From Rhodocyclales bacterium (GTDB lineage Bacteria; Pseudomonadota; Gammaproteobacteria; Burkholderiales; Rhodocyclaceae), in contig JACRIZ010000008.1 of assembly GCA_016235765.1 (NCBI GenBank), forward strand, positions 1,838 to 65,837: a DNA stretch of 64,000 nucleotides, read 5' to 3'. Below, one piece after another: positions 3,665 to 37,699 of the stretch. Positions within the stretch are counted from its first letter, which is position 1. Each line of letters starts with the position of its first letter. Made by a program: the position numbers and the translations under genes. The notes beneath the pieces were generated by a model. The model was not told the origin of the DNA. It did no database searches and worked only from the letters and a program-made list of their open reading frames with translations.

Positions 3665-3693
3665 TCCGTCCATCGACCCATTAGGAGCCGACC

Positions 3694-4611: not shown

Positions 4612-4650
4612 GGCGGCAGGTCAGCGCCCGCCGCCTGCCACGCCAGAATC

Positions 4651-5592: not shown

Positions 5593-6335
5593 TGGATCGC
5601 ACTCGGCGATTGGGCGCGACCAAGTGTTGCCGTGGGCACACCCTCGCCCTTGATGGGCTTCAGCAAGGTGTCCTTGGCAATTTCGACGGCCTGGAAATAG
5701 GCGTTGGTCAAGCCGGGGAATGTCGGTGGCTCATCCCATTTCCCGTCGGCGCTCTTGGTAACGACAACAGGCAGGTACCAATCGTAGGCGTTCGTTTTCA
5801 TGTCGACCAGATAACCATTGCCATTGAGGTAGGCCTTGGGATCGCTGGTTGGGATGTAAGCCGAATAGGTCCTGATAAAGCCAAGGGCCTTCATTTCGAT
5901 GACCAATAGCCGGTTGATGTTGTACTTCTTGCCCACTGCCGTGAAGTCCTTCTTGGCGATATTCTCGCCGCCGCCGTCAAACGATGGCAATGCATCGAGA
6001 TCGATGTATTCGTCGATCACCAGCGCGTCCGCACCCTTGGCGCGCAAGTGCTTGGCAACGGTCTCCTTCATCGACGTAAGGTCGTCATGCGGCAATGTCT
6101 GGGCATGGGTCGTCAGGTCAGCATTCGCCAATGTGGCTGTCGCCAGGCAAACCAGGCAGCTTGCGCCAGGAATCTGCGTATCGAGTTTTGGCAGCGTGGT
6201 CATTGCCACGCCAACGCGGCCCGACTTCGAACCGATTGCATCTTGCGCAAGCGAAATAGGTTGTTGGGGCTTCGTTGCACAGCCGGAAACGACGACGGCA
6301 ATGGTTACCAGTGCCAAACTCAAACGACAATTCAT
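5589..6335 (-). CDS. lipoprotein of unknown function
   Basis: Internal ATG at 6335 is preceded by GGGGAGAG. Signal plus lipobox MNCRLSLALVTIAVVVSGC. About 47-52% GC in the segments I counted, against about 66% elsewhere. Confidence 0.65.
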   Translation of the reverse strand: MNCRLSLALVTIAVVVSGCATKPQQPISLAQDAIGSKSGRVGVAMTTLPKLDTQIPGASCLVCLATATLANADLTTHAQTLPHDDLTSMKETVAKHLRAKGADALVIDEYIDLDALPSFDGGGENIAKKDFTAVGKKYNINRLLVIEMKALGFIRTYSAYIPTSDPKAYLNGNGYLVDMKTNAYDWYLPVVVTKSADGKWDEPPTFPGLTNAYFQAVEIAKDTLLKPIKGEGVPTATLGRAQSPSAIQ

Positions 6336-6502
6336 TGTGACTCTCCCCTTTTTCCGGTGGAACGCTGTACGTGCCAATTGCACCGGCATAATCTTATGAC
6401 AAAATACCCATTGCTGGGTACTGGTCATTGCGCGAACGTTTGCGTCCTCCGGGTATGATGCGTCTTGTTGGGTGGCGTATCGCCTCCCGCGAGAGGCATG
6501 CC

Positions 6503-6772
6503 ATGACCAGAAACCCCAAGCGCTCCAGCACGACCCTTATCATCGCCGCCGTCGTCCTCGTCCTGGCCTTCGTGCTCAATCCGTCGCCGGACCGGCACCG
6601 CGAGAAGATTCGGTCGGTGATCGCCGAACGCAATCCGATCGCCGGTGCGCTGGGCGTGGGCGCGCTTACCGCCTTCGCCTCCGGCTACCACTCATTGGGG
6701 GTCGCGTCCTATACGAAGCTCGACGACCGGCTGGCGTCGATCGGCTTCATGGGGATGGTATTCGTCCTGTAG
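6503..6772 (+). CDS. small membrane protein (one N-terminal TM helix)
   Basis: ATG at 6503 (MTRNPKRSSTTLIIAAVVLVLAFVL...). The start upstream of this in the track ORF looks non-coding. Confidence 0.5.
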   Translation: MTRNPKRSSTTLIIAAVVLVLAFVLNPSPDRHREKIRSVIAERNPIAGALGVGALTAFASGYHSLGVASYTKLDDRLASIGFMGMVFVL

Positions 6773-6780
6773 TCGCCGGT

Positions 6781-7032
6781 TCAGGCGGCCCGCTTCACCA
6801 CGCGGTGCGGCGGTCTGGCGGCGGCGCGGGCCTGAACCGCATACTTCCAGTTCGGCCGCTTGCCGACCACCGAAGCAACCGCGGCTTCGGCACCGTCGAC
6901 CAGGATGGAGCCGGGCATGCTGTCGACAACGGTCGCCGATTTCCGCAAGGCGGAAACCAAGGCGCGTTCCTCCGCGGGGGGCGGATCGCTCAGACCGTTA
7001 TAGACGACGACGAAGCGGCTCATGTGGTTCAT
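6781..7032 (-). CDS. small hypothetical protein downstream of the S8 peptidase
   Basis: ATG at 7032 lies immediately after the peptidase TAG (7034-7036). 83 aa, no recognisable motif. Confidence 0.4.
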   Translation of the reverse strand: MNHMSRFVVVYNGLSDPPPAEERALVSALRKSATVVDSMPGSILVDGAEAAVASVVGKRPNWKYAVQARAAARPPHRVVKRAA

Positions 7033-7033
7033 G

Positions 7034-8542
7034 CTACACCAACAGGCCGGCGCCTTCAAACGTGGCGCCGAAGCCCAGTTCCTCGGCGGCCTTCAGGGCG
7101 AGGTGGATGATGGCGTCGGACCGCTTCTGGTCGCGCGCCATGTTCAGAATCCGCGACTGGCGGCCGAGCTGCCGCGCCAGGGAACCCGTGATCGCCGGAC
7201 AGGCCATGGACGTCCCGTCCATTACCGCGTAGCCGCCCGGATAGGCGGAGACAATGCCCACGCCGGGGCCGGTCAGGTCGACCTCGCTGCCGACGTTGCT
7301 GAAATTGGCGACGAAGTTCTTGCGGTCGGTACCGAACGGCTTCTGGATTGTCAGCGCCTGGGCCGCGCCGGCAGGATAGGTTCCCTTGCGGCCGAAGGCA
7401 CTGACCGCCATGGTCTGCGCATAGCGCGCCGGGTAGGAAACCGCGCCGCGGTAGTCGTTGCCGGTGGCGGCGAGACAGACGACGCCCAGCGCGCGGGCGC
7501 GCTGGATCTCGCGCAGCACGTCGGGCATGTCACCTTCGCCACCCAGCGACAGGTTGATCAGGTCGCAGCCGTCGTCGACCGCCTGGCGGATGGCCTTGGC
7601 GATGGCGAACGACTCGGCCGTCTCGCTGCTGCGCCCGAACACGCGATAGACATGCAACGCCACCCCGGGGGCGGCACCGCGCACGCCCTGGCCGGCGAGG
7701 CCGCGGCCGGCGATGATGCCGCACACGTGGGTGCCATGGCCCATCCGGTCGTCGAAGTCGGCCGCCGGCTCGCCCCGCACCACGTTCATGCCCTTGGCGA
7801 ACCTCAGGTCGGGGTGCTTCGCGGCGCCGGTATCGATCACCGCGACGCGAACGCCCTCGCCATCGGTATCGCGGCCGGCAAGCCCGAAATGCCCGCGCAT
7901 GTCGCGGTCGCCAAGGTCGATCGGCGAGCAAGCCAGGCACGGCGCACCGGTGGCGAGAGACAGCTCGGCGACATGGGCCGGCCAGTGTCCGTGGGCCGGA
8001 TAGGCCTCGACCGACTCCAGCTTGCGCACCCCCGCCGGCAGCAGCAGCCTGGCGATGCCGCGCTTGTTGCTGCGGGCCACGGCGCCGGTCCTTTCGCTGC
8101 GGCTGATCAGCGCGACCACGTCGACGCCCTCCAGCGGCCCGCCGGTCTGCTTGTCCGTCACCGCGACCTCGAAGACGAAGCGGCTGCCTGCCGCGGACAC
8201 GACGCCGGGCACGGCATTGACCTGCCGGTGCCGCAGCCACAAGGGCGACAGTTGCGTGACGGGCACGACGCGCAGCCCGGGGTGGGCACGCAACAGCTTG
8301 ATGCGCTCCGCCTCGCCCATCGAGACCAGCATGGTCTCCTGCGGCGCCACCTGGTCGAGCAGGGTCATCTTGAAATCGAAGGCCTTGAGCGACAGCAGCA
8401 CGCCGGCACGCGGGGCGGCATTCAGCAGGCGCGTCGCGGTGCGCAGGAAGGAGGCGCTGGTACCGGGTTGCCGTTCATTCCAGACATTCAGCCCGGGCAG
8501 GACCACGAATCGTAGAAATCCCGCCGGCTTGGTTACCGCCAT
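7034..8542 (-). CDS. subtilisin-like serine peptidase (S8 family), no obvious signal peptide
   Basis: Catalytic triad contexts are present: VAVIDTG (Asp), HGTHVCGIIAG (His), GTSMACPAITG (Ser). SD GGGAGGG precedes the ATG at 8542. The long + strand ORF 7022..8515 is an antisense shadow. Confidence 0.85.
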   Translation of the reverse strand: MAVTKPAGFLRFVVLPGLNVWNERQPGTSASFLRTATRLLNAAPRAGVLLSLKAFDFKMTLLDQVAPQETMLVSMGEAERIKLLRAHPGLRVVPVTQLSPLWLRHRQVNAVPGVVSAAGSRFVFEVAVTDKQTGGPLEGVDVVALISRSERTGAVARSNKRGIARLLLPAGVRKLESVEAYPAHGHWPAHVAELSLATGAPCLACSPIDLGDRDMRGHFGLAGRDTDGEGVRVAVIDTGAAKHPDLRFAKGMNVVRGEPAADFDDRMGHGTHVCGIIAGRGLAGQGVRGAAPGVALHVYRVFGRSSETAESFAIAKAIRQAVDDGCDLINLSLGGEGDMPDVLREIQRARALGVVCLAATGNDYRGAVSYPARYAQTMAVSAFGRKGTYPAGAAQALTIQKPFGTDRKNFVANFSNVGSEVDLTGPGVGIVSAYPGGYAVMDGTSMACPAITGSLARQLGRQSRILNMARDQKRSDAIIHLALKAAEELGFGATFEGAGLLV

Positions 8543-8673
8543 GTTGCCCTCCCATGTCGCTTAGGTTTCCAGACATCATATCCGGTCCCGGTCCCGGCGG
8601 CCGCCGTGTCCTGGCACCCGAACAACAGGATCACGCCGTCCAAAAACCACGCCGTTTCGGGCATCATGCGCCC

Positions 8674-9738
8674 ATGGCGATCATGCGCATTCTGCTGCCG
8701 ACCTTGTCGATGCTATCGCTGCTGGCCTGGCCGGCAACGGGCTTCGGTCTGGCCGATGGGCCGGTCAGGACACTACGCGTCCTCGCCTGGCCGGGCTACG
8801 CCGACGCCGAGGTCGTCAAGTCTTTCGAGCAACGCCATGCCGTGCACGTGGACCTGACCCTGGTCGCGACCGACGAAGCGCTGTGGGAAAGGATCAATGG
8901 CAACCAGGGCGGCGATTTCGACGTCTTCGCGGTCAATACCGCGGAGTTGCAACGCTACATCGACCGCAGGCTGGTACAGCCGATCGACGCCGCCGCCATT
9001 CCCAACACGCAGCGCCAACTGCCGCGCTTTCGCAAGGTCGAGGCCATCGCCGGCCTGACCCGCGGCGGCAAGGTCTATGGCGTTCCCTACACCTATGCCG
9101 AGATGGGGCTGATCTACGACCGCAGCCAGTTCGCCCAGCCACCCGACTCGATCGCCGCGTTGTGGGATCCGCGTCTGCGCGGCCGCATCCTGGCCTATGA
9201 CGGCGGCGGCCACAGCTTCTCGCTGGCGGCGATGATACTGGGCAAGGCCTCGCCGTTCCGGATGGCCGAAGCGGACTGGCCGCAGGCGGTGGCGCGCCTG
9301 ATCGCCCTGCGCCGCAACGTGCTCGGCTTCTACGCGCAACCCGACGAAGCGGCCCGCCTGTTCCGCAAGCACCGCGTGGCGCTGCTGTTCGCCAACTACG
9401 GCACGCAGCAGGTGAAGGCGCTCAAGGCCGCGGGCGCGGACATCGGCTACGTGATTCCCAAGGAAGGCGCCCTGGCCTGGCTGGACTGCTGGGTGGTGAC
9501 GCAGGGCACCAAGGACCTTGCGCTGGCCTACGCCTGGATCGACCATCTGCTCGGCGAGCAGGCCAGCGGCCTGCTGGTTGCGCGGCAAGGCCTGGCCAAC
9601 ACGATTGCAGAACCGTCGGGCAGCGGCGCCGCGGACCGCCTGCTCTGGCTGGAGCCGATGGAAAATCCGGGACGCCGCGACAAACTCTGGGCACGCATCA
9701 TGTCCGGCGACTCCGCCGCCAGGGTACTGGGCCCGTGA
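8674..9738 (+). CDS. periplasmic solute-binding protein (PotD/PotF-like, family 1)
   Basis: Signal peptide MAIMRILLPTLSMLSLLAWPATGFG. Followed by LRVLAWPGYAD...FDVFAVN..., typical of polyamine-type binding proteins. Confidence 0.7.
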   Translation: MAIMRILLPTLSMLSLLAWPATGFGLADGPVRTLRVLAWPGYADAEVVKSFEQRHAVHVDLTLVATDEALWERINGNQGGDFDVFAVNTAELQRYIDRRLVQPIDAAAIPNTQRQLPRFRKVEAIAGLTRGGKVYGVPYTYAEMGLIYDRSQFAQPPDSIAALWDPRLRGRILAYDGGGHSFSLAAMILGKASPFRMAEADWPQAVARLIALRRNVLGFYAQPDEAARLFRKHRVALLFANYGTQQVKALKAAGADIGYVIPKEGALAWLDCWVVTQGTKDLALAYAWIDHLLGEQASGLLVARQGLANTIAEPSGSGAADRLLWLEPMENPGRRDKLWARIMSGDSAARVLGP

Positions 9739-11477
9739 AGCTGAAGCTCGCGCAGCGTTTCGCGCTGGTCCTGGCTGCAGTAGGCATCCTGGGCGCGGGA
9801 CTGAGCGGCTACTACGCCTACCATGCCAGCCGCGAACTGCTGCTGCGCGCAGCCGAGGAGCGCCTGCTGACCTCGACGCGGGTCCTGATGCGCCAGGTCG
9901 TCACGGCCTTGCAGAAGGGCAGCCAGGACGTGCTGCTGCTGGCCAGCCATCCGCGCACCGTGGCCGCGCTGACCGCCGCCACGGGGCCGGAGCGCGCTGC
10001 CGCCGAGAACGACATCGCTGCCCTGTTTGTCGCGATGCTCAAGACGCGGCCCGACATCTACCAGTTACGCCTGATTACCGCGGCGGAGCATGGCATGGAG
10101 CGCATCCGCGTTGACCGCGACGAGGCCGGCCTGCTCCGGGTCGGGGGCGACGAGCTCCAGGAGAAGGGCCACTATCCCTATGTCTACGAAACGCTGCGCA
10201 TGCCGCGAGGTTCGGTGTTTGTCTCCAATCCGGTAATCAACCACGAGCGTGGCGCGCATGCCGGCGAAGACAAGCCGTCGGTGCATCTGGCAACGCCCAT
10301 CCATGCCGCGAACGGCGTACCGATCGGGCTGATCGTCCTGAACGCCGACCTCGACTCCGTCTTCCGCATGCTTACCAGCGACCTGCCTGGTGGCATCGGC
10401 CTCTACCTGACCAACGGCCTCGGCGATTTCCTGCTTCATCCCGACGCCAGCCAGGCCTTCGCCTTCGACCGGGGCAAGCGCATCCTGGTCCAGGACCAGT
10501 TCCCGGCCACGGCCCGGCTCTTCGACGGTCAAACCGAACACGTCGTCACGACGGCGACCCCGGATGCCGCCTCGGTCGCAGCCTTCATCAGGCAGCCGCT
10601 CAATCCACCGCAGGACAACGAATCCTTCGTGCTCGGCATGTCGCAGCCGACCGCTGCGGTACTGAGCGACAGCGATGCGCTGGGCACGGCCATCCTGCGC
10701 ATCGTCTTCGCCTTCAGCGTGCTGTCGCTGGTCCTGGCCACGCTGCTGGCGCGGGCGGTGACCGAGCCGCTGAACCAGATGGTGAGTGCGGTGCAGCGCT
10801 TCACCGCCGTCCAGGAGCGCGTGCCGCTGCCGATCGATCGCCAGGACGAAATCGGGGTACTGGCACGCAGTTTCGACGAGATGCAGCAGAAGATCGAGAT
10901 GCAGATGGGCACGCTGCAGGCCAAGCAGCGCGAACTCGACCATCTGGCCAGCCACGATCCCCTGACCGGCCTGCCCAACCGGCGCGTCTTCCTGGACCGC
11001 GTCGAGCATGCGCTGGCCCGCGCCCAACGCACCGAATCGCGCGTGGCGATCCTGTTCATCGACCTCGACCACTTCAAGGAAATCAACGACAACCTCGGCC
11101 ACGCGGTTGGCGACCTGATGCTGCTCGCAGTCGCCGACCGGCTGCGCACCACGGTGCGCGCCGCCGACACCGTGGCACGCCTGGGCGGCGACGAATTCAT
11201 CATCCTCGTCGAAGATGTCGAGAGCCTGGACGCCGTTGCCATGGTGGCCCGGAAGATCATCGAGGCGCTGGCCCACCCGGTCTGGTATCAGGACCAATCG
11301 CTGGCCGTCGGCGCCAGCATCGGCATCGCCATCTTCCCGCAGGACGGAGCCAGCACGACCGAGGTTATCGCCCGCGCGGACCAGGCGATGTACCGCGCCA
11401 AGCTTGCCGGCCGCAATCGCTACTGTCTCGCCTCGGAAGCCTCGGGAGACACCCACACGATCCCGCTCGACCTTTGA
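9735..11477 (+). CDS. membrane sensor diguanylate cyclase (periplasmic Cache-like domain, HAMP, GGDEF)
   Basis: GTG start overlaps the upstream TGA (GTGA). N-terminal TM helix, about 300-aa periplasmic domain, second TM helix. HAMP (PLNQMVSAVQRF...DEIGVLARSFDEM), then GGDEF (DPLTGLPNRR, RLGGDEFIILV). Confidence 0.85.
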   Translation: MKLKLAQRFALVLAAVGILGAGLSGYYAYHASRELLLRAAEERLLTSTRVLMRQVVTALQKGSQDVLLLASHPRTVAALTAATGPERAAAENDIAALFVAMLKTRPDIYQLRLITAAEHGMERIRVDRDEAGLLRVGGDELQEKGHYPYVYETLRMPRGSVFVSNPVINHERGAHAGEDKPSVHLATPIHAANGVPIGLIVLNADLDSVFRMLTSDLPGGIGLYLTNGLGDFLLHPDASQAFAFDRGKRILVQDQFPATARLFDGQTEHVVTTATPDAASVAAFIRQPLNPPQDNESFVLGMSQPTAAVLSDSDALGTAILRIVFAFSVLSLVLATLLARAVTEPLNQMVSAVQRFTAVQERVPLPIDRQDEIGVLARSFDEMQQKIEMQMGTLQAKQRELDHLASHDPLTGLPNRRVFLDRVEHALARAQRTESRVAILFIDLDHFKEINDNLGHAVGDLMLLAVADRLRTTVRAADTVARLGGDEFIILVEDVESLDAVAMVARKIIEALAHPVWYQDQSLAVGASIGIAIFPQDGASTTEVIARADQAMYRAKLAGRNRYCLASEASGDTHTIPLDL

Positions 11478-11492
11478 CCCTGGGGTCGCGCG

Positions 11493-11975
11493 TCAGTCCT
11501 TCTTCAGGTTGAACTTGTGCGCGACGTAGGTCTGCGACCCCGTCGGCGGCGGCGGATACCTGATGTCCCTCAGCGCTTTCGCGACGGCTTCGGACAGATC
11601 CTGGTCTTCGAAGTCGCTGTGGATGATCGCCGCTTCCGCCACCCGGCCGTCCGGGTCGATCTGCCAGTCCGCTTCGATGGCGCCCTCGGTCCTGGCCGGA
11701 TGCTTTGCCAGATAGGCGATCCACGCCGCCTGTATTCCGGCGGCGTGCTTGCGCAAGGTGTTTTTCACCGCCTCGTCACGATAGGGATCGGCGCCGGCAC
11801 GCGCTCCGCGCTGCGCGGGAGCGGCCGCGACTTTCGACATCAGCATCGCGACCTGTTCGTCGGTACGCTGTTGCGCGAAGTAGAACCAGCCCCAGGAGGC
11901 GATCAGCGTCGCCGCCAGGGCAGCGATGACTGCCGCCTGGGTTGTGCTCTGTCGCTCAGCGATATCTGAACACAT
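11493..11975 (-). CDS. membrane-anchored TonB-C/AgmX-like domain protein
   Basis: One TM helix (AAVIAALAATLIASWGWFYF). The C-terminal domain (GAIEADWQIDPDGRVAEAAIIHS...IRYPPPPTGSQTYVAHKFNL) resembles a TonB/AgmX C-terminal fold. Overlaps the upstream gene's stop by 20 nt. Confidence 0.55.
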   Translation of the reverse strand: MCSDIAERQSTTQAAVIAALAATLIASWGWFYFAQQRTDEQVAMLMSKVAAAPAQRGARAGADPYRDEAVKNTLRKHAAGIQAAWIAYLAKHPARTEGAIEADWQIDPDGRVAEAAIIHSDFEDQDLSEAVAKALRDIRYPPPPTGSQTYVAHKFNLKKD

Positions 11976-13554
11976 AGGTCGCGCCGGAGTTCAGGGCCGA
12001 ATTGTCGGCGCTGGCCGTCGTGCCGTTGGTGACGGATGTCTGGCTGCTCGATTCGCGCTGTGCACCCGCGACCACGGAGGTGCCGCTCACTGCCACGCTG
12101 ATGCCGAAATAGTCGTCGGATTCGGCATTCGGCGCCTTCAGGTAGGCCTGTCGTGCCCAGGTCGTGCCGGTACGCTTGAAGACGTAGGCCGCTCCGGCCG
12201 AGGCAGCGGAATTGTCGCTGCTGCCGCTCGTACCGTTGATGACGGTCGTGCGGTTGCTCGATTCATGCGGGGCCCCTACCACGGCAATGTCGCCTGACAG
12301 AGCAACGCTTGCGCCGAAGAAGTCGCCAGCCTCGGCGTTCGGCGCCTTCAGGTAGGCTTCCTGCGCCCAGGTCGTGCCGGTGCGCTTGAAGACATAGGCC
12401 GCACCGGCCTCCAGGGCGGAGTTGTTGCCGCTGGCGGTCGTGCCGTTGGTTGGCGTCGTCTGGCTGCTTGCTTCGCCGGACGCACCCACGACGATCGTTT
12501 CGCCATTGATGGCGACGCTCTCGCCAAAGTGATCGCCGGCCCCGGCGTTGGGCGCCTTCAGGTAGGCCTCCTGCGCCCAGGTCGTGCCGCTACGCTTGAA
12601 AACGTAGGCCGCGCCCGCGGCGGCCGCAGAGTCGTCGGCACTGGCGGTCGTGCCGTTGGTGATCGTCGTCTGATTGCTGGCCTCGCCTTTCGCGCCGACC
12701 ACCACGGTATCGCCGTGGATCGCAACGCTGAAGCCGAACTCGTCGTTCGCCCCGGCGTTCGCTGCCTTCAGGTAGGCCTGTTGCGCCCACGCCGTGCCCG
12801 TGCGCTTGAAGACGTAAGCCGCGCCGGCCTGCGCAGCGGAGTTGTCGGCGCTGGCGGTCGTTCCGTTGGTGATGGTCGTCTGGTTGCTGGCTTCGGAATG
12901 CGCCCCGACCACCACCGTATCGCCCGCCACCGCGACGCTGTAGCCGAAGTCGTCGCCGGCCCCGGCATTCGGCGCCTTCAGGTAGGCCTCCTGTGCCCAG
13001 GTGGTGCCGGTACGCTTGTAGACGTAGGCGGCACCGGCAGAGGCCGCGGAATTGTCCGCGCTGGCCGCGGCGCCGTTGGTGATCGTCGTCTGGTTGCTGG
13101 ACTCGCCGGAAGCGCCGACCACGACGGTGTCCCCATTGACGGCGACGCTCTCGCCGAAGAAATCGCCGCCCCCCGAATTGGGCGCCTTCAGGAAGGCCTC
13201 CTGCACCCAGCTCGTCCCGCTGCGCCGGAACACATAGACAGCGCCAGCCCAGGCGACGGAATTGTCGGCGCTGGCCGTGCTGCCATTGGTGATCGTCGTC
13301 TGGTTGCTGGCTTCACCCAGCGCGCCGACGACCATCGTATCGCCGTCGATCGCGACCGAGTAGCCGAGTTGATCGGTCGCGCCCGCATTCGGCGCCTTGA
13401 CGTAGGCTTCCTGCCCCCAAACGAGCGCGGCCGCAGGAGTGGATGTAGTCGCTCCGCCGCTTACCCCTCCGCCACCACCACCACCGCCACCGCAACCTGC
13501 CACAACGGCAACGGACAGCACCCCGGCAATAGTCCTGCAAACGCTCTTAGGCAT
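11956..13554 (-). CDS. FG-GAP-like seven-repeat beta-propeller lipoprotein
   Basis: ATG at 13554 (MPKSVCRTIAGVLSVAVVAGC, a lipobox) followed by a poly-Gly linker. Then six 70-aa repeats plus one 63-aa repeat of AYLKAPNAGAGDxFGxSVAxxGDTVVVGAxxEASNQTTITNGTTASADNSAAxAGAAYVFKRTGTTWAQE. Confidence 0.8.
   Translation of the reverse strand: MPKSVCRTIAGVLSVAVVAGCGGGGGGGGGVSGGATTSTPAAALVWGQEAYVKAPNAGATDQLGYSVAIDGDTMVVGALGEASNQTTITNGSTASADNSVAWAGAVYVFRRSGTSWVQEAFLKAPNSGGGDFFGESVAVNGDTVVVGASGESSNQTTITNGAAASADNSAASAGAAYVYKRTGTTWAQEAYLKAPNAGAGDDFGYSVAVAGDTVVVGAHSEASNQTTITNGTTASADNSAAQAGAAYVFKRTGTAWAQQAYLKAANAGANDEFGFSVAIHGDTVVVGAKGEASNQTTITNGTTASADDSAAAAGAAYVFKRSGTTWAQEAYLKAPNAGAGDHFGESVAINGETIVVGASGEASSQTTPTNGTTASGNNSALEAGAAYVFKRTGTTWAQEAYLKAPNAEAGDFFGASVALSGDIAVVGAPHESSNRTTVINGTSGSSDNSAASAGAAYVFKRTGTTWARQAYLKAPNAESDDYFGISVAVSGTSVVAGAQRESSSQTSVTNGTTASADNSALNSGATYVFRYR
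11959..13406 (-). repeat. seven in-frame tandem DNA repeats with exact 210-bp period
   Basis: The marker GGCGCCTTCAGGTAGGC or a close variant recurs at 12131, 12341, 12551, 12761, 12971, 13181 and 13391. Spacing is exactly 210 bp each time. Confidence 0.85.
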
Positions 13555-13650
13555 GATGCCCCCAAAAAGTAGTACGACATGAGTGCAGCGGAAAATACCA
13601 GCGAATGAAATATGGCTATGCCAGTTGCCAAATGACGACACCCCGGGATC

Positions 13651-13666
13651 TGTCGCAAACACGACA
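13651..13666. promoter_or_regulatory. NifA upstream activator sequence (TGT-N10-ACA)
   Basis: TGTCGCAAACACGACA. Near-identical to the UAS copies upstream of nifV (TGTCGCAAACCCGACA) and rnf (TGTAGCAAACGCGACA) in this window. Confidence 0.65.
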
Positions 13667-13705
13667 TCGCCACGCATACCCCACGCTCCGATGCGGCTTT
13701 CAGCC

Positions 13706-13721
13706 CGGCCCGGTTCTTGCC
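13706..13721 (+). promoter_or_regulatory. sigma54 (-24/-12) promoter candidate for the SIR2-like/hemerythrin operon
   Basis: CGGCCC-GGTTC-TTGCC has GG and GC at the canonical 12-nt register. Predicted +1 is about 13732, leaving a 20-nt leader with AGGAGA before ATG 13752. Confidence 0.55.
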
Positions 13722-13751
13722 TGTAGTCATTCAGACTTACAGGAGACAACC

Positions 13752-14603
13752 ATGATTAGCTCCAAATTCCGAACAGAGATGCTGGCCGGCCTCAAGGACG
13801 GCAGCGTGGTGCCCTACCTCGGTCCCGGCGTTCTGGCCGACGTCCGCCACGCCGAAACGGGCGCGGCGATGCCCATCACCAGCGACGAACTGATCATCGC
13901 CATGAACGGCGGCAAGCCGATGTCGCCCAAGCTCATGTACGAGTTCCCGCGTGCGGCGATGAACATCGAACTGAAGCGAGGTCGCTCGGCCGTCACCAAA
14001 TTCCTCGACGCCACCTACAACGCGCCTTGGACCCGCAGCGCCGTGCATGACTGGCTGAAGGCCATCCGGCCCGCCTACGTGATCGACATCAACCGCGACA
14101 CGCAGTTGCTCGATTCCTACGCCGACGTGCCGCACACCCTGGTGCTCGGCTGCGCCCGCATCGGCGGCACCGACTTCCGCTTCAAGCTCTTCGCCTGGGA
14201 CGGCATGCACTACAGCGCCATCGCCCCCGGCCAGGCCGCCCTGGGCCTGCCGCTGCTGTTCAAGCCGATGGGTGCGCCCAAACCTGAATCGACCTACATC
14301 GCCTCCGACGCCGACTACGTCGACTACATCACCGAACTGATGGGCGGCTTCGCCGTGCCGGCCTACGTCAAACAGTTGCGGAGCGACAAGCGCTACCTCT
14401 TCCTCGGCATGCGCTTCAACCGCGACAGCGAGCGCATGGTGATGTCCGACATCATCTACAGCGCCGCCGCCGGCCCGGCCGGCTGGGCGCTGATCGAGAG
14501 TCCGACCGCCAAGGAGCAGCGCTTCCTGGCCAAGATGGGCATCGTGATCGTCGAAGGCAGCGTCGCCGAACTGATGGGCGCGGAGGAGGCCGTGACATGC
14601 TGA
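13752..14603 (+). CDS. SIR2-like (SIR2_2-type) domain protein
   Basis: ATG at 13752 after AGGAGA. Motif order recalls the SIR2_2 family: GSVVPYLGPGV (N-terminal Gly-rich loop), YVIDINRDTQLLDSY (compare TTNYD..LE), LLFKPMGAP....YIASDADYVDYI (compare KLHGS...DY) and KRYLFLGMRFNRDSERMVMSDI (compare lFlGySl.D). The assignment is from memory of family motifs, not a search. Confidence 0.55.
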   Translation: MISSKFRTEMLAGLKDGSVVPYLGPGVLADVRHAETGAAMPITSDELIIAMNGGKPMSPKLMYEFPRAAMNIELKRGRSAVTKFLDATYNAPWTRSAVHDWLKAIRPAYVIDINRDTQLLDSYADVPHTLVLGCARIGGTDFRFKLFAWDGMHYSAIAPGQAALGLPLLFKPMGAPKPESTYIASDADYVDYITELMGGFAVPAYVKQLRSDKRYLFLGMRFNRDSERMVMSDIIYSAAAGPAGWALIESPTAKEQRFLAKMGIVIVEGSVAELMGAEEAVTC

Positions 14604-14986
14604 ACTGGAAACCCGAACTGCACGCCGTCGGCGTCGCCGACATGGACGCCACCCACGAGCAATTCGTCGAGGAACTGGCGATACTGACCAAGGCCGGCGA
14701 CGAAGACTTCCCCCACCTCTTCCACGCGCTGGCGCTGCACACCCGCACCCACTTCGAGAACGAAGGCCGCCTGATGCGCGCCTGCCGCTTCCCCGCCATC
14801 GGCGAACACGAAAGCGACCACCAGCGCATCCTCGGCGAACTCGCCCAGATCGGCCGCGGCGTCGCCAAAGGCCGCCTTGGCCTAGCCCGCGCCTACGTCG
14901 CCGTCGGCCTGCCCGACTGGTTCAGGACGCACCTGGCGACCATGGACAGCGCGCTGGCTGCGCGGCTGAAGGCGACCCAGACCTGA
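14597..14986 (+). CDS. hemerythrin-like metal-binding protein
   Basis: WKPELHAVGVADMDATHEQFVEE, HTRTHFENE, HESDHQRIL and WFRTHLATMD match the H/HxxxE/HxxxH/HxxxxD ligand pattern. The ATG overlaps the upstream stop by 7 nt. Confidence 0.8.
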   Translation: MLNWKPELHAVGVADMDATHEQFVEELAILTKAGDEDFPHLFHALALHTRTHFENEGRLMRACRFPAIGEHESDHQRILGELAQIGRGVAKGRLGLARAYVAVGLPDWFRTHLATMDSALAARLKATQT

Positions 14987-15009
14987 AAAGTCAGTCGTGG
15001 TGGCACGCC
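14987..15009 (-). repeat. 23-nt motif copy i (22/23)
   Basis: Reverse complement is GGCGTGCCACCACGACTGACTTT. Fills most of the 30-nt hemerythrin/draG convergent spacer. Confidence 0.85.
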
Positions 15010-15016
15010 ACCTGCG

Positions 15017-15934
15017 TCAGGCGGAGGTCAGCGCAACAAGCTTCCGCGCCTGCGTGGCGCAGGCTTCGCGGGCGACCGGGTCGAGGGCCTTGAGCCAGCG
15101 GGCCGGGAGCGCGTCGTGGCCGTAGATGGCGCCGGCGAGCATGCCGGCGATGGCGCCGGTGGTGTCGGCATCGCCGCCGCGATTGACGACGTCGATCAGG
15201 CATTTCTCGAAGCTGTCGGTCAGCAGCAGCGACTGCAGGACGGCCTGCATGGTCTCGACGACCCAGCCGCTCGGGTTCTCGCGCCGCCGCGTGCGGTAGG
15301 CGAAGACGGGACTCTTCTGGACGAAGGGCTGGATGCCGCGCCGATAGACGCCGCGCAGGGCGCCGCCGTGCAGGCCTTCCTGCACGGCCAGCGCCAGGAA
15401 TTCGGCGGCGGCATCGGAATCCGGGTTGTTGTGTGTCACGTGCGCCTGGGCACGCACGGCGGCACGCACCGCGGCGTCAGGCTGCCCCAGCGTCGCCAGC
15501 GCCACGGGCAGCACGCGCATGGCGGCGCCGTTGCCGGCATCGTGTTCGGAGGGCGGCGCGACCGGCTCGCCGCTGCGGCGGAAGGCAACGAGATTTCTGC
15601 GTACCGTATTGCCGATGTCCACCGGCTTGGCGCGCATCCAGCCGTCGAAGGCCATCGCGCAGGACAATGGCTCGACGCGCCCGCCGTCGGCGAGGATCGC
15701 CTCGCCGAGCGACAGGCTCATGGTCGTATCGTCGGTGACCGAACCGGGGCGCAGGCGCAGCCAGCCGCCGCCGCGGATCTCCTTGTGGACGCCATACTTG
15801 TCCCGGATCTCGCGCGGCGTCATGAACTCGACCGTGGCGCCGAGGGCATCGCCCAGCGCCAGGCCGAGGTAGGCCGCCTCGGCCCGCTCGGCGAGCGCTT
15901 TATCGACTGGGGTACTCGACGAGGATGTCCTCAT
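15017..15934 (-). CDS. draG: ADP-ribosyl-[dinitrogen reductase] glycohydrolase DraG (ADP-ribosylglycohydrolase family)
   Basis: AYLGLALGDALGATVEFM, GSVTDDTTMSLSL, GGDADTTGAIAGMLAGAIYG. Last gene of the nifB-side minus-strand block. Confidence 0.8.
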   Translation of the reverse strand: MRTSSSSTPVDKALAERAEAAYLGLALGDALGATVEFMTPREIRDKYGVHKEIRGGGWLRLRPGSVTDDTTMSLSLGEAILADGGRVEPLSCAMAFDGWMRAKPVDIGNTVRRNLVAFRRSGEPVAPPSEHDAGNGAAMRVLPVALATLGQPDAAVRAAVRAQAHVTHNNPDSDAAAEFLALAVQEGLHGGALRGVYRRGIQPFVQKSPVFAYRTRRRENPSGWVVETMQAVLQSLLLTDSFEKCLIDVVNRGGDADTTGAIAGMLAGAIYGHDALPARWLKALDPVAREACATQARKLVALTSA

Positions 15935-16593: not shown

Positions 16594-17868
16594 TCAGGCC
16601 AGCGCGGCCATGTCGATGACGGTGGATTCCTGGCGGCCGGTCAGGTGCAGGGCCAGTTCGCGACCGAGGGCACGGCAGGCGCCGAGTTCCTCGACCGTCG
16701 GGATCAGTCGGGCGCGCACGCCCTTGACGGGCACGCGCAGCTTGAGGCCGCGCAGGCGGTCCTCGACCATGGGCACGGCCTCGCCGCTCCAGCCGTAGGA
16801 ACCGAAGGCAGCGCCGAGCTTGCCGCGCACGTTGACGGCAGTGAGCGAGGACAGCAGGTCCCAGACGGGCTTCACAGCGTCGCCGTTGATGGTCGGGCTG
16901 CCGAAGGCCAGGCCGTCGGCTTCCTCGATGAGGTCGACGAAGGGTGCCACTTCGCCGCCCTCGATGTCGTAGAGCGAGACGCGCACGCCCGCCGCATCCT
17001 CGGCGCCGGCGGCCAGCGCCTCGGCCATGGCGCGCGTGCTGCCGTAGGCGGAGAGGTAGAAGACCAGCAGCGTCTTTTCGTCGGCCGCCTCGTTCTTGAG
17101 GCCCGAGGCGGACAACTCGCGATAGCGGGCGACGTAGCGCTTGGGCGCGTCGCGCAGGATGGGCCCGTGCGCCGGCGCGATCAGTTTCACCGGCAGCGGC
17201 TCGATCAGGTCGAGCGCCTCCAGCACATGGGCGCGGAACGGCCGCATGATGTGCGCATAATAGTACTCGAACGAGAAACGGAAGTCGCCGACCGCGTCGT
17301 TGAACAGGCGCGGGTCGCAGAAGTGGCAGCCGAACACGTCGCCGGAGAACAGCGCACACTCCTCTTCCAGATAGGTGCATTGCGTGTCCGGCCAGTGCAG
17401 GAAGGGCGTCTGCAGGAAGCGCAGGGTCCGGTCGCCGAGGTCGACGCTGCTGCCGGTCTGCGTCGGCACGTAGGCCAGGCGATCGCCGTGCAGCAGGCCC
17501 TTGAGCATCGGCTGGCCGCGCGAGGAAATGTAGAGCTGCGCCTGCGGCGCGCGCCGCAGCAGTTCGGGCAGCGCGCCGGAATGGTCGGGTTCGAGGTGGT
17601 TGAGGACGATGGCGCGAATTTCCCCATAGTCCGCCACCGACTCCAGACGGCGGAAGAAGGTGTCGGAGAAATTCTCCTTCACCGTGTCGATGACGGCGAC
17701 GCCCGCGCTGCCGCGCACGACATAGCTGTTGTAGCTAGTGCCGTTGGCGGTCTTGAGGATGATGTCGAACGTGCGCAGCCCCGGGTCGAGCGCGCCGACC
17801 CAATGAACGCCCGGAAGGAGTTCTACCGCGCGATCAGCAGCCGCCGCCGGGAGCATGGTCATGGTCAT
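16594..17868 (-). CDS. flavodiiron protein (metallo-beta-lactamase plus flavodoxin domains, FprA type)
   Basis: VLNHLEPDHSGALPELL (di-iron site) and a C-terminal flavodoxin-like LLVFYLSAYGSTRAMAE...GSPTINGD. Start is taken at one of the clustered ATGs (17868/17862/17856). The track ORF start at 18018 lies inside the upstream gene. Confidence 0.8.
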   Translation of the reverse strand: MTMTMLPAAAADRAVELLPGVHWVGALDPGLRTFDIILKTANGTSYNSYVVRGSAGVAVIDTVKENFSDTFFRRLESVADYGEIRAIVLNHLEPDHSGALPELLRRAPQAQLYISSRGQPMLKGLLHGDRLAYVPTQTGSSVDLGDRTLRFLQTPFLHWPDTQCTYLEEECALFSGDVFGCHFCDPRLFNDAVGDFRFSFEYYYAHIMRPFRAHVLEALDLIEPLPVKLIAPAHGPILRDAPKRYVARYRELSASGLKNEAADEKTLLVFYLSAYGSTRAMAEALAAGAEDAAGVRVSLYDIEGGEVAPFVDLIEEADGLAFGSPTINGDAVKPVWDLLSSLTAVNVRGKLGAAFGSYGWSGEAVPMVEDRLRGLKLRVPVKGVRARLIPTVEELGACRALGRELALHLTGRQESTVIDMAALA

Positions 17869-18310
17869 GCCCACAGGGATGGTCATGGGCGTGGCCCTGG
17901 CAGACATGGCCGTCGGTGCCGTGCTGGCAGGCCTCCATGTCCTCCTCGGGCAGGTCCGCCCCGAGGCCGATCCAGGCGTCGATGGCGGCGACGTCGAAAC
18001 CGACCTTGCGCACGCCATTGACTTCCATCAGCGGGCGGCGGATCAGCAGCGGATGCTTCTTCAATAGCGTCAATGCGCGCGCCTCGTCGCACTCCTCGGG
18101 CACGATCTCGCCGCTCTTGATGGCCGGCGAGTTGCGGTTGAACCATTGCGCGATCGGCAGCGAGCCGAAGAAGCCGCGCAGATCGGCATCCGTCCAGCGC
18201 GTCGTCATGAGGTCGCGCGGCACCACGATGTGGCCGGCGGCTTCGAGGATCTTCTTCTGCTTGGCGTTGCCGGAGCAGCCCGGCTTTTCATAGAAGGTGA
18301 CGACGGCCAT
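17834..18310 (-). CDS. ArsC/Spx-family nitrogenase-associated protein with His-rich C-terminal tail
   Basis: MAVVTFYEKPGCSGNAKQKKILEAAGH... is ArsC-like. The tail is CQHGTDGHVCQGHAHDHPCGHDHDHAPGGGC. Confidence 0.7.
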   Translation of the reverse strand: MAVVTFYEKPGCSGNAKQKKILEAAGHIVVPRDLMTTRWTDADLRGFFGSLPIAQWFNRNSPAIKSGEIVPEECDEARALTLLKKHPLLIRRPLMEVNGVRKVGFDVAAIDAWIGLGADLPEEDMEACQHGTDGHVCQGHAHDHPCGHDHDHAPGGGC

Positions 18311-20158: not shown

Positions 20159-20176
20159 TTGCAAGCGCGATGCCAG
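20159..20176 (-). promoter_or_regulatory. sigma54 promoter of nifB
   Basis: Reverse complement reads TGGCAT-CGCGC-TTGCA. Predicted +1 is about 20149, 23 nt before the nifB ATG. Confidence 0.75.
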
Positions 20177-20216
20177 CCCACTAAGTCATTGATTATCCAA
20201 GCCTGAATCGCACGCT

Positions 20217-20232
20217 TGTCGGGAAAGTCACA
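20217..20232. promoter_or_regulatory. NifA UAS (TGT-N10-ACA) upstream of nifB
   Basis: TGTCGGGAAAGTCACA, about 41 bp upstream of the -24 element. Confidence 0.6.
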
Positions 20233-20535: not shown

Positions 20536-21390
20536 TTACTCGAAGTGCACCACCACCACCGGGTTGTCGGGCAAACCCGCATAGGTCACCGAAATCGTCG
20601 TTCCGGCCTCAACCGGCGCCGAACCCAGGAAGCCACCCAGGCTCAGCATGTCGCCCGGCTTGAGCTCGATGCCGTCCTTCCTCAGGGCCTTGGCCAGCCA
20701 CAGTGCGGCGCGGATGGGCTGCCCCATCAGCACCTTGCCGCGCGCCCGGCCGATCTCGCGGCCGCTGCGATCCTCGGCCACCACGACGTCCAGCCTTTCC
20801 AGGCTGCGGAGAAATCTCCGGCTCGGCTCCACCGGAATCCGCGGACCGACGACGCCGCCGCGGAAGGCGGCGTTGGTGGCGACCAGTTCGGCGCCCGTCG
20901 GCGAACCTTCGAGCATGATGTCGGGCAGTTCGATGAACGGTATCAGCGCGCTGATGTGGTGCAGCGCCTCCAGCGGCGACTGGGCATCGGCCAGCCCCGC
21001 ATCCTTCACCACGACGATGAAATCGGGCTCGTAGCGGAGCTTGGCGCCCTGCTTGGCATAGACCAGCGTCGAATTGAAGAGCATGAAGCCGCCGAACATC
21101 GCGCCCCAGGCCGGCCCTGAAACGCCGAAGCGCCTTTGCGACTCGGCATTGGTGAACAGCGCCTTGTAGCCCACCCGCTTGCCCAGCACGGCCGGCAAGG
21201 CTTCGATCAATTTGCCACGCGCACAGCGGGCGTCCTCTGGCGTGATGTCCTTGCCGAAGCCCTTGCTGAGCCTCGCCGACTTGAAATCCTCCAGGTAGGC
21301 CGAGACGGCCGCGTCGTCCGGACAGGCGGCCGACGCCAACAACGGCAGGCAAGCCGCCACGAACGCCCCGAATCGCTTCCCCAGCTTCAT
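20536..21390 (-). CDS. exported fumarylacetoacetate-hydrolase/2-keto-4-pentenoate hydratase-like protein
   Basis: ATG at 21390 after GGAGAG. Signal-like MKLGKRFGAFVAACLPLLASAA. The C-terminal part (GDMLSLGGFLG...) resembles MhpD/FAH family hydratases. Confidence 0.55.
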   Translation of the reverse strand: MKLGKRFGAFVAACLPLLASAACPDDAAVSAYLEDFKSARLSKGFGKDITPEDARCARGKLIEALPAVLGKRVGYKALFTNAESQRRFGVSGPAWGAMFGGFMLFNSTLVYAKQGAKLRYEPDFIVVVKDAGLADAQSPLEALHHISALIPFIELPDIMLEGSPTGAELVATNAAFRGGVVGPRIPVEPSRRFLRSLERLDVVVAEDRSGREIGRARGKVLMGQPIRAALWLAKALRKDGIELKPGDMLSLGGFLGSAPVEAGTTISVTYAGLPDNPVVVVHFE

Positions 21391-21863
21391 TTCTTGCTCT
21401 CTCCGACAGGCAACGCCGTCTTGTCCACCACGCGGCGCAGCACGAAGCTGGAATGTACTCCGGTCACGCCCTTGATTCGAGTGATCCGGTTGAGCAGCAA
21501 CTCCTGGTAGGCGTCCATGTCCTTGACCACCACCTTGAGCTGGTAGTCGGCATCCTGGCCGGTGATCAGCAGGCACTCCAGCACTTCCGGGATTTCGCTG
21601 ACCGCGCTTTCGAAGGCGTCGAAGCGCTCCGGTGTGTGCTGGTCCATCGAGATGTGGATCAGGGCCATCAGCGACAGGCCAAGCCGCTTGGGATCGACCA
21701 GCGCCCGGTAGCCGACCAGGAAACCGGCCTCCTCCAGCGCACGGACGCGCCGCAGGCAGGGCGAGGGCGACAGGCCGATGCGCTCGGCGAGGTCCTGGTT
21801 GCTGATCCGGCCGTCCTCCTGCAGCAGAGCGAGAATCTGGCGGTCGTAGCGATCAATCTCCAT
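21387..21863 (-). CDS. Lrp/AsnC-family transcriptional regulator
   Basis: MEIDRYDRQILALLQEDGRISNQDLAERIGLSPSPCLRRVRALEEAGFL plus a RAM domain. ATGA overlap with the downstream gene. Confidence 0.9.
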   Translation of the reverse strand: MEIDRYDRQILALLQEDGRISNQDLAERIGLSPSPCLRRVRALEEAGFLVGYRALVDPKRLGLSLMALIHISMDQHTPERFDAFESAVSEIPEVLECLLITGQDADYQLKVVVKDMDAYQELLLNRITRIKGVTGVHSSFVLRRVVDKTALPVGESKK

Positions 21864-21991
21864 TGCACTGCCTCCAATACGATACATGGCGCAATTTCCT
21901 GCCAAATGATCGCACTTGAGGGCCACAAAACGCAAGCACATTTCTCGCCCGATTCCTTAGCATGGCGCCATACGAATCGAGGAGCAGCGCC

Positions 21992-23695
21992 ATGTTGAAA
22001 CAGCCCGCCACCAAGTACTCGCCCTTCCCGCCCGTCGGCCTTGCCGACCGGCAGTGGCCGAACCGCGTCATCGGCAAGCCGCCGGTCTGGATGAGCACGG
22101 ACTTGCGCGACGGCAACCAGGCCTTGTTCGAGCCCATGGACGTCGAGCGCAAGCTGCGCGTGTTCAAGATGCTCTGCGCCATCGGCTTCAAGGAAATCGA
22201 GATTGCATTCCCCTCCGCCTCGCAGACGGAATTCAACTTCGTCCGCCGGCTCATAGAGGAACAGCGCATTCCCGACGACGTCACCATCGAGGTGCTCACC
22301 CAGGCGCGCGAGCACTTGATCCGCCGCACCATGGAATCGATCAAGGGCGCACGCCGCGCCATCGTGCATGTGTACAACGCGACCTCGAAGCCCTTCCGCG
22401 ACATCGTCTTCAACATGAGCCGCGCCGAGGTGATAGCCATGGCCGTCGCCGGCGTCAGGCTCGTCAAGCAGCTCGCTGCCGAAATGCCCGAGACCGGGAT
22501 CCAGCTCCAGTACAGCCCGGAAACCTTCACCGGCACCGAGCTCGATTTCGCGCTCGAGATCTGCGATGCCGTCACCGCCGAATGGGGCGCCGCGCCGGAC
22601 AACAAGGTGATCCTCAATTTGCCGACCACGGTCGAATTGACGACGCCGAATGTCTACGCCGACCAGATCGAGTGGATGCACCGCCACCTCGCCCGCCGCG
22701 ATAGCGTACTCATCAGCCTCCACCCGCACAACGACCGCGGCACCGCCGTCGCCGCCGCCGAGATGGGCCTGATGGCGGGCGCCGACCGCGTCGAGGGTTG
22801 CCTGTTCGGCAACGGCGAGCGCACCGGCAACGTCGACGTGGTCACCCTCGCGCTCAACATGTACACGCAGGGCATCGCGCCCGGCCTCGACTTCTCCGAC
22901 ATCAACGCCATCGCGCGCGAGTTCGAGGACTGCACGCGCCTGCCCATCCACCCGCGCCACCCTTACGTGGGTGACCTCGTCTTCACGGCCTTCTCCGGCT
23001 CCCACCAGGACGCCATCAAGAAGGGATTCGCCGCCCACAAGGCGGCGGGTCACGAAAATGCGCCGTGGAACATTCCCTACCTGCCGATCGATCCGGCCGA
23101 CCTCGGCCGCAGCTACGACTCGGTGATCCGCGTGAACAGCCAGTCGGGCAAGGGCGGCATCGCCTACCTGCTCGAAACCGGCTACGGCGTCGTCATGCCG
23201 CGCCGCCTGCAGGTCGAGTTCGCCGGCGTCGTGCAGCGCGAGACCGACGCGCACGGCGGCGAGATGAGCGCCGCCGACATCTGGCAGCTCTTTTCGCGCA
23301 CCTACCTCGACAGCGCGGTGCCGGTGAAATACGTCGAGCATCACCTGTTCGAACATGGCACCGCCCAGGGCATCCGCTTGACGATAGAGGTCGACGGCAC
23401 GACGCATCTGCTCAGCGGCGAAGGCAACGGCCCGATCGATGCCGCCGTGCATGCCTTGCGCGGCATCGGCGCCGGACTCCAGGTGCGCAGCTACGAGGAG
23501 CGCTCGATGGGTTCGAGCAGCGAAGCCGGCGACGCGCGCGCCTGCGCCTTCATCGAGATCGCCCGGCCGGGCGGCGGCGAGCGCTACGGCGTCGGCATCG
23601 ACGGCAATATCGTCACCGCCTCGATCAAGGCGCTCATTAGCGGGGTCAACAGAATGGGTATATCCGCTGCCGGTGCGGCACACCAGGCGGCCTGA
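21992..23695 (+). CDS. leuA: 2-isopropylmalate synthase (long, LeuA type 2)
   Basis: WMSTDLRDGNQALFEPM, SLHPHNDRGTAVAAAE, C-terminal regulatory domain. ATG at 21992 is preceded by GAGGAG. The 823-aa minus ORF across it is a shadow. Confidence 0.9.
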   Translation: MLKQPATKYSPFPPVGLADRQWPNRVIGKPPVWMSTDLRDGNQALFEPMDVERKLRVFKMLCAIGFKEIEIAFPSASQTEFNFVRRLIEEQRIPDDVTIEVLTQAREHLIRRTMESIKGARRAIVHVYNATSKPFRDIVFNMSRAEVIAMAVAGVRLVKQLAAEMPETGIQLQYSPETFTGTELDFALEICDAVTAEWGAAPDNKVILNLPTTVELTTPNVYADQIEWMHRHLARRDSVLISLHPHNDRGTAVAAAEMGLMAGADRVEGCLFGNGERTGNVDVVTLALNMYTQGIAPGLDFSDINAIAREFEDCTRLPIHPRHPYVGDLVFTAFSGSHQDAIKKGFAAHKAAGHENAPWNIPYLPIDPADLGRSYDSVIRVNSQSGKGGIAYLLETGYGVVMPRRLQVEFAGVVQRETDAHGGEMSAADIWQLFSRTYLDSAVPVKYVEHHLFEHGTAQGIRLTIEVDGTTHLLSGEGNGPIDAAVHALRGIGAGLQVRSYEERSMGSSSEAGDARACAFIEIARPGGGERYGVGIDGNIVTASIKALISGVNRMGISAAGAAHQAA

Positions 23696-28518: not shown

Positions 28519-31726
<3,208 letters not shown>

Positions 31727-37689: not shown

Positions 37690-37699
37690 CAGCACAGGG

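Follow-up and report, generated by a model that had tools for sequence, protein, structure and literature searches.

The SIR2-like/hemerythrin gene pair beside draG

We analyzed a 64,000-nucleotide (nt) stretch of contig JACRIZ010000008.1 (positions 1,838 to 65,837 of the forward strand; assembly GCA_016235765.1) from a Rhodocyclales bacterium, called the window below. The subject is a putative bicistronic operon in which a gene for a SIR2-like protein (gene 1) is followed by an overlapping gene for a hemerythrin (gene 2). Table 1 lists the parts of the operon and the nif and dra features of the window that bear on it. A preliminary description, made from the letters alone, had placed here an upstream activator site for NifA that differs by one base from the nifV site of the same window, a sigma-54 element with its GG and GC in register, an AGGAGA sequence and a 20-nt leader, followed by a SIR2_2-type gene, a hemerythrin gene overlapping it by 7 nt and, 30 nt further on, the 3' end of draG, with draT elsewhere in the window. 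These observations are confirmed, by reading the promoter parts directly and by profile searches with the genes.

The predicted transcription start lies near 13731-32, which leaves a leader of about 20 nt, and the start codon of gene 1 at 13752 is backed by full-length alignment with homologues. The hemerythrin gene has a ribosome-binding site of its own, GGAGGAGG, upstream of the overlap. A pattern scan found no canonical terminator after the hemerythrin gene, and the fold of the spacer hairpin is not significant (z-score -1.59).

Table 1. Features of the operon and related nif and dra features in the window (aa, amino acids)
Feature	Position	Strand	Remarks
NifA upstream activator site TGT-N10-ACA, TGTCGCAAACACGACA	13651-13666	palindromic	Read directly; centre about -73 from predicted start
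Sigma-54 -24/-12 element CGGCCC-GGTTC-TTGCC, CGGCCCGGTTCTTGCC	13706-13721	+	GG 13707-08, GC 13719-20 (GG-N10-GC)
Shine-Dalgarno sequence AGGAGA	13741-13746	+	5 nt 5' of the gene 1 ATG
Gene 1, nif-associated SIR2_2-fold protein, 283 aa	13752-14603	+	Pfam, AlphaFold2, Foldseek
Gene 1/gene 2 overlap, 7 nt, ATGCTGA	14597-14603	+	Hemerythrin start codon over gene 1 stop codon
Gene 2, bacteriohemerythrin-type protein, 129 aa	14597-14986	+	Pfam, TIGR02481, ligand alignment
Convergent intergenic spacer, 30 nt	14987-15016		Weak GGTGG-CACG-CCACC hairpin
draG, ADP-ribosyl-[dinitrogenase reductase] hydrolase	15017-15934	-	TIGR02662, 378 bits; stop codon at 15017
draT	2849-3664 (minimum extent)	+	Stop-to-stop frame opens at 2567; Pfam DRAT, 323 bits
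nifA	28515-30113 (stop-to-stop frame)	-	TIGR01817, 674 bits; presumed activator of the operon promoter
nifL	30104-31726		TIGR02938, 615 bits
nifB promoter	20160-20232	-	Upstream site TGTCGGGAAAGTCACA at 20217-20232; TGGCATCGCGCTTGCA at 20160-20175; gap 42 nt
rnf NifA-type promoter	31738-31861		Gap 93 nt
nifV NifA-type promoter	44024-44105		Gap 52 nt

The promoter is conserved among related loci

Counts of the bare patterns are uninformative by themselves, both for the loose GG-N10-GC and for TGT-N10-ACA, which is not enriched in the window (6 observed, 4.5 expected). The extended motif TGTCGCAAACNCGACA, allowing at most 2 mismatches, has three copies in the window where 0.15 would be expected, and none of 100 shuffled sequences has as many. 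Each copy lies 5' of a nif-type operon, namely the operon studied here, nifV (44090) and rnf (31738), and the nifV site TGTCGCAAACCCGACA (44090-44105) is one base different from TGTCGCAAACACGACA.

The comparison drew on species-representative genomes, from which we took 80 loci encoding a relative of gene 1. Among the usable orthologous loci, 68/77 have a TGT-N10-ACA site 5' of the gene 1 ATG, usually about 100-118 nt away, and the consensus of these sites is again TGTCGCAAACCCGACA. The sigma-54 element, as GG-N8-TTGC, stands 42-54 nt (in one case 60) before the ATG in 74/78 sequences. Across the loci a C at +2 and a G at +5 are conserved as well, whereas the flanks hold little information, about 0.1 bit per position. 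Gaps between the upstream site and the GG fall into clusters of 39-42 (15 cases), 51-54 (32), 62-64 (6) and 72-74 nt (2), which together take in 55/65. The steps of about 11 bp correspond to about one helical turn, which fits an activator confined to one face of the DNA. Given the frequency of the extended site and the conservation of both elements, the promoter is not a chance match.

A promoter scan of 13400-15200 found no sigma-70-like promoter. Control of the operon by NifA and sigma-54 is well supported by comparative footprinting, and the operon would be expected to depend on NifA in the source organism. Like the classical NifA/sigma-54 promoters of the nifH and nifB type, it combines TGT-N10-ACA with GG-N10-GC and keeps the site on a conserved helical face. 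NifA sites usually lie further upstream of the promoter; unlike those of the classical promoters, the site studied here is close, with its centre at about -73. This looks like a habit of the lineage, since nifB in the window shares the geometry. The gap from the upstream site to the GG is 40 nt at the operon, 42 nt at nifB, 52 nt at nifV and 93 nt at rnf; relative to the operon, the other three keep roughly the same helical phase.

Gene 1 has a SIR2 fold and a methionine in place of the catalytic histidine

In a search with hidden Markov models (HMMs), gene 1 matches Pfam SIR2_2 (PF13289) at 33.9 bits (cut-off 24.5) over residues 161-265 only; no other Pfam family matches at E <= 0.1, and no NCBIfam family matches. 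The AlphaFold2 model, built from an alignment of 27 sequences, has a predicted local distance difference test score (pLDDT) of 93.8 and a predicted template modeling score (pTM) of 0.92. Using Foldseek, we found the best Protein Data Bank (PDB) matches of this model to be DSR2, KomC and ThsA (probability 1.00, TM 0.62-0.64, E about 1e-10), and a profile search with gene 1 matches KomC (2.4e-5) and ThsA. Because the model, the structural matches and the profile matches agree, we describe gene 1 as a SIR2_2-fold protein.

The motifs of the nucleotide pocket are kept: a Gly-rich loop LGPGV (residues 23-27), DINRD, which resembles TTNYD, and a C-terminal LFLGMRF (LFLG-x-x-F). N114, R115 and D116 of DINRD are invariant in 81/81 orthologues. 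In contrast, the loop that carries the catalytic His, expected as K-L-H-G about 15 residues before an (S/T)-x-D-Y helix, reads K-P-M-G in gene 1, with Met173 at the position of the His. The stretch KPMGAPKPESTYIASDADY of gene 1 aligns gap-free to KLHGDVETPEDAVITRSDY of PDB entry 7uxt_B, and the placement of Met173 agrees with the coordinates of the Pfam model and with the predicted secondary structure, in which a strand at 168-171 leads into a loop. The position corresponds to the catalytic His, which the depositors' mutant names DSR2 H171A and KomC H146N mark as the residue changed in order to trap these enzymes. This His is essential for the NADase activity of DSR2/KomC-type enzymes, which consume nicotinamide adenine dinucleotide (NAD).

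The 81 orthologues have Met (76), Leu (3), Val (1) or Thr (1) at position 173 and never His, and no His column is conserved at >=90% in the family alignment. More distant members of the family have Y, L, I, H or W at the equivalent position, and their motif Asn becomes Trp, as in the Rhizobium-type subfamily. H153, which follows N114 by about 39 residues, was considered as an alternative catalytic His and rejected: it varies between H, Q, D, N and E, and the prediction places it within an inserted beta-hairpin (residues 144-156). Since position 173 is never His among the orthologues, canonical NAD+ cleavage or deacylation appears unlikely for gene 1, which is more likely to be a pseudo-enzyme that binds a ligand or a protein partner.

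Longer or atypical representatives of the family were also checked for fusions that might connect it with DraT, DraG or NifH. They proved to be fragments, chimeras or an unrelated protein of the Fic-SIR2_2 type, with no DraT or DraG fusion among them.

The hemerythrin gene is coupled to gene 1 in part of the family

Gene 2 matches Pfam Hemerythrin (PF01814) at 38.5 bits (cut-off 25.3) and TIGR02481 at 62 bits (cut-off 51.75). It is below the cut-offs of the NCBIfam bacteriohemerythrin models NF033749 (57.5 vs 84) and NF002522 (84.8 vs 162). All seven di-iron ligands (H20, H52, E56, H71, H75, H112 and D117) align to those of DcrH-Hr (PDB 2AVK) and are kept in 43/43 orthologues, and the protein would be expected to bind O2 or nitric oxide (NO). 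It resembles the single-domain bacteriohemerythrins, such as DcrH-Hr of Desulfovibrio, in its length of about 130 aa and in these ligands, and is unlike them in its scores against the NCBIfam models, its narrow orthologue group, its NifA-type promoter and its coupling to a SIR2-like gene. The group comprises 391 proteins, and every named sequence among its top hits is of Rhodocyclaceae type.

Where the two genes are adjacent they overlap by 4 or 7 nt (10/10 such loci, plus the window), an arrangement that we read as translational coupling. The hemerythrin gene lies on the same strand and within 1 kb of the SIR2-like gene in 36/72 loci with enough downstream sequence, and the pairing is absent from all other lineages examined; in L030 and L049 the hemerythrin gene is 3-5 kb away. 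Hence the suggestion in the preliminary description that the hemerythrin is the partner of the SIR2-like protein holds for the coupled loci and does not extend to the family as a whole.

Genomes of the Dechloromonas/Azonexus type have a conserved 185-aa open reading frame (ORF) between the SIR2-like gene and the hemerythrin gene. It was found in Azonexus sp. IMCC34839 (L038:10863-11420) and in 35 other loci and is absent from the window; searches with it against Pfam and PADLOC found no match, and the PDB yielded nothing significant.

The family is tied to nif clusters

The family of gene 1 is small, with 242 representatives (50% identity) at E <= 1e-3 among 1.84 billion proteins. There are nif or dra genes in 37 of the 40 loci with flanks of 8 kb or more on each side, and the remaining three still have an upstream TGT-N10-ACA and GG-N10-GC. 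Within 10 kb of the SIR2-like gene, draT is found in 54/80 loci and draG in 52/80. About 20 of these draT genes are less than 200 bp upstream, and in many relatives the spacing is 60-200 bp.

The usual Rhodocyclaceae-type order has nifKDH on one strand and draT divergent from nifH, followed by the SIR2-like gene, optionally the 185-aa ORF and optionally the hemerythrin gene; the opposite strand carries draG, two ferredoxin genes and the genes for a flavodiiron protein and a nitrogenase-associated protein, and nifB. In the window, draG is the last gene of such a minus-strand series, after nifB, the nitrogenase-associated protein, the flavodiiron protein and the two ferredoxins. The window draT (63% identical to Azonexus DraT by tblastn) is about 10 kb from the operon, and the interval (3685-13556) is filled with unrelated genes. 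No nifHDK genes were found within the window.

Elsewhere the gene is found in other nif arrangements: nifA-nifB-fdx-nifZ-nifT-SIR2 on a Rhizobium symbiotic plasmid (fdx, ferredoxin gene), within the nif cluster of a Methylococcus plasmid, nifB-nifZ-nifT-SIR2 on a Rhodobacteraceae contig, and nifT-DUF6129-SIR2-fdx-nifW on a Leptospirillum-like contig. No draT or draG is present in the examined stretches of these four. A distant relative in L084, from an NCBI metagenome assembly, stands in the order nifT ... SIR2-fdx-nifU and adjoins draG, draT and nifA, and two short contigs have fdx-(redoxin)-SIR2-clpX. The SIR2-family genes of the Rhizobium and Methylococcus plasmids match gene 1 in tblastn with E values of 9e-22 to 2e-11 at 24-30% identity, and the Rhodobacteraceae and Leptospirillum-like homologues are likewise in nif contexts. 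Because nif clusters without draT and draG also carry it, the family is tied to nif rather than to DraT/DraG. Thus the association with DraT/DraG proposed in the preliminary description stands, by position, in the Rhodocyclaceae-type clade and is not a feature of the other nif clusters in the stretches examined.

Several other observations concern the neighborhood. The genes between draT and the operon encode a PilZ protein, a subtilase, a solute-binding protein, a GGDEF protein, a TonB_C protein and a seven-repeat FG-GAP protein, and draT itself stands between genes for an Fe-alcohol dehydrogenase and a PAS-GGDEF protein. The window also has several cyclic-di-GMP signaling genes scattered among its nif and dra genes (37661-40804 on the plus strand, 1-1618 on the minus strand and 9735-11477 on the plus strand); the set consists of a PAS-GGDEF-EAL gene directly 3' of rnfH and genes for two GGDEF proteins. 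Many related loci have GGDEF/EAL genes between the hemerythrin gene and draG. The flavodiiron (flavorubredoxin-like) protein encoded between nifB and draG (16594-18018, minus strand) has an N-terminal extension of about 70 aa and is a second candidate, beside the hemerythrin, for an O2- or NO-scavenging function. Between nifB and nifLA (21387-23695), a gene for an Lrp-type regulator and a long-form leuA (2-isopropylmalate synthase) are oriented divergently; leuA is a paralogue of nifV. In two distant relatives (L083:4329-7213 and L085:107-2338) the SIR2-like gene lies between a gene for a small 4Fe-4S ferredoxin and a clpX-like gene, an arrangement unlike both the draT/draG and the nifT arrangements.

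Relation to published nif-cluster SIR2 proteins

SIR2-family proteins have been recorded in nif clusters before. Rcc03262 of Rhodobacter capsulatus, a "SIR2 family protein" listed beside nifT, was found in the wild type and not in a nifA1-nifA2 mutant (PMC6925177). ZMO1821 of Zymomonas mobilis rises under N2 fixation and might, in the speculation of the authors, be a deacetylase (PMC8600466, PMC8594446). PST_1325 of Pseudomonas stutzeri is listed directly before nifH (PST_1326) (PMC11332353). Papers on Thalassolituus, Rhodovulum and Paenirhizobium list sir2 in their nif cluster maps, and the Thalassolituus paper (bioRxiv 2026.08.28.747955) likewise speculates on a lysine deacetylase. We found no published functional test of a nif-cluster SIR2-family protein.

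Gene 1 shares with these proteins its form, a stand-alone SIR2_2 protein of about 280 aa inside a nif cluster, and the measured relatives (Rcc03262 and ZMO1821) are NifA-dependent or induced under N2 fixation. Rcc03262, ZMO1821 and PST_1325 are likened to gene 1 by their description, and sequence homology is established for other nif-linked members: those of Rhizobium (WP_012489553), Methylococcus, Rhodobacteraceae and the Leptospirillum-like lineage are detectable homologues, and in them too the catalytic His is unconserved. The subfamily of the window differs in its motifs (DINRD/KPMG/TELMGG vs DxWYD/KP[Y/L/H/I]G/TEIDIQTPIP), in being placed between draT and draG, with a NifA promoter of its own, rather than behind nifT, and in sharing an operon with a hemerythrin gene. 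The preliminary description had regarded a SIR2-fold protein teamed with an O2-binding module under NifA control as undescribed. The SIR2-family component is already on record; what looks new is the pairing with a hemerythrin, seen in about half of the loci of Rhodocyclaceae type, together with the location between draT and draG and the absence of the catalytic His. No published link between a hemerythrin and the SIR2-like gene or draG was found.

Alternative explanations

The database label "SIR2 family" and the published speculation invite the view that gene 1 is a sirtuin (CobB)-type lysine deacetylase regulating nitrogen-fixation proteins. Gene 1 is distantly related to the sirtuin deacylases (CobB/Sir2, PF02146) through the NAD-binding Rossmann superfamily. 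Unlike them, it matches SIR2_2 alone, lacks the catalytic His and has no Cys4 zinc-ribbon module (C134 and C283 are its only Cys residues), and its closest structures are defense NADase domains, not deacylases, all of which makes this view very improbable. Those structural matches, together with the KomC profile match, could instead suggest an anti-phage SIR2 NADase that came to lie in a nif island by chance. With DSR2, KomC of Kongming and ThsA of Thoeris gene 1 has in common the fold, the Gly-rich loop and the Asn and Asp of the TTNYD-like motif, and KomC is also stand-alone, at about 264 aa. Yet gene 1 has Met at the catalytic His and no sensor or partner domain; neither gene 1 nor gene 2 nor the neighboring 185-aa ORF matches a PADLOC family (E <= 0.01); and the NifA promoter and the nif synteny are kept across many genera and several bacterial classes. 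We regard a defense role as scarcely credible.

The hypothesis put forward in the preliminary description, that the pair is an O2-gated NAD-consuming enzyme (an NADase, a deacylase or an ADP-ribose-related enzyme) acting beside DraT/DraG in nitrogenase switch-off, has more in its favor: the SIR2 fold, the invariant N114 and D116, the location between draT and draG in the Rhodocyclaceae-type clade, the distant relative in L084 that also adjoins both genes, and the coupled hemerythrin. It is nevertheless unlikely, given the replacement of the catalytic His in all 81 orthologues, the occurrence of the family in nif clusters where no draT or draG was seen, the lack of a hemerythrin in half of the loci, and the lack of fusions to DraT or DraG among the representatives checked. 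Alternatively, the two genes may share a promoter and have independent functions, the SIR2-like protein serving as an accessory in nitrogenase maturation or electron transfer and the hemerythrin as a general O2 scavenger. Half of the Rhodocyclaceae-type loci, and every other lineage examined, have the SIR2-like gene with no hemerythrin beside it, the recurrent neighbors of the gene elsewhere are nifT, DUF6129, ferredoxins, nifW and clpX, and L030 and L049 have the hemerythrin gene at some distance. Against this speak the overlap, which is kept wherever the genes are adjacent, and the narrow hemerythrin group, which shares its taxa, as far as the top hits are named, with the SIR2 subfamily. We consider independent functions possible, while leaning against them.

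A His-less SIR2-fold protein with a lineage-specific hemerythrin

The explanation that we favor, and to which we give somewhat better than an even chance, is a bicistronic operon under NifA and sigma-54 that encodes a His-less SIR2-fold binding protein and an O2-binding hemerythrin, the latter an add-on to an older nif accessory gene. NifA would activate the sigma-54 promoter and give rise to a bicistronic transcript, and expression would take place only once NifL releases NifA, i.e. at low O2 and low fixed nitrogen. The product of gene 1 may then bind an NAD+/ADP-ribose-type ligand, or a protein of the nitrogenase pathway, without turning over NAD+. The hemerythrin, translated in a coupled manner, would bind O2 (or NO) and might buffer or sense O2 locally during diazotrophy. 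The hemerythrin, and in Dechloromonas/Azonexus the 185-aa protein as well, would be lineage-specific additions to the older gene. In this explanation gene 1 would bind its ligand without catalysis, and the two proteins may be in physical contact. As a whole, the interpretation given in the preliminary description is partly supported: the proposed NAD-consuming modifier or deacylase is disfavored by Met173, and the operon and its nif context are kept.

Several points weigh against the explanation that we favor. The mapping of the catalytic His comes from profile alignment, motif spacing and predicted secondary structure rather than from superposition, and the part of the 7uxt alignment that covers the His position scores just 4.5 bits. 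Searched against the PDB, the C-terminal half of gene 1 gives no hit as a single sequence and, as a profile, an insignificant match to FAM118B (E 0.67). With Asn114 and Asp116 both invariant, some NAD+ cleavage or base exchange may persist, and because half of the related loci have no hemerythrin, the two proteins need not act jointly. The coupling and the shared taxonomic range favor joint action, and the frequent absence of the hemerythrin favors independent roles.

A more specific version can be considered, in which the His-less SIR2 protein is a non-catalytic sensor of NAD+/ADP-ribose (or nicotinamide) and forms, with the coupled hemerythrin and in Dechloromonas/Azonexus also the 185-aa protein, an O2-responsive switch that tunes the ADP-ribosylation of NifH by DraT/DraG or directly protects the Fe protein. 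We hold this to be speculative and quite unlikely. If true, the switch would be a third, so far unrecognized component of post-translational nitrogenase control in Rhodocyclaceae.

Implications

In every context examined, the SIR2-like gene belonged to a nif cluster, and these contexts range over Alpha-, Beta- and Gammaproteobacteria and a Leptospirillum-like lineage. The missing catalytic His argues against the published deacetylase reading and points to the binding of a ligand or a partner. The Rhodocyclaceae variant, with its own NifA promoter, its position between draT and draG and its coupled hemerythrin, makes a good experimental system, suited to asking whether this family ties NAD/ADP-ribose status or O2 to nitrogenase activity, a question relevant to how well engineered nitrogen fixation can tolerate oxygen.

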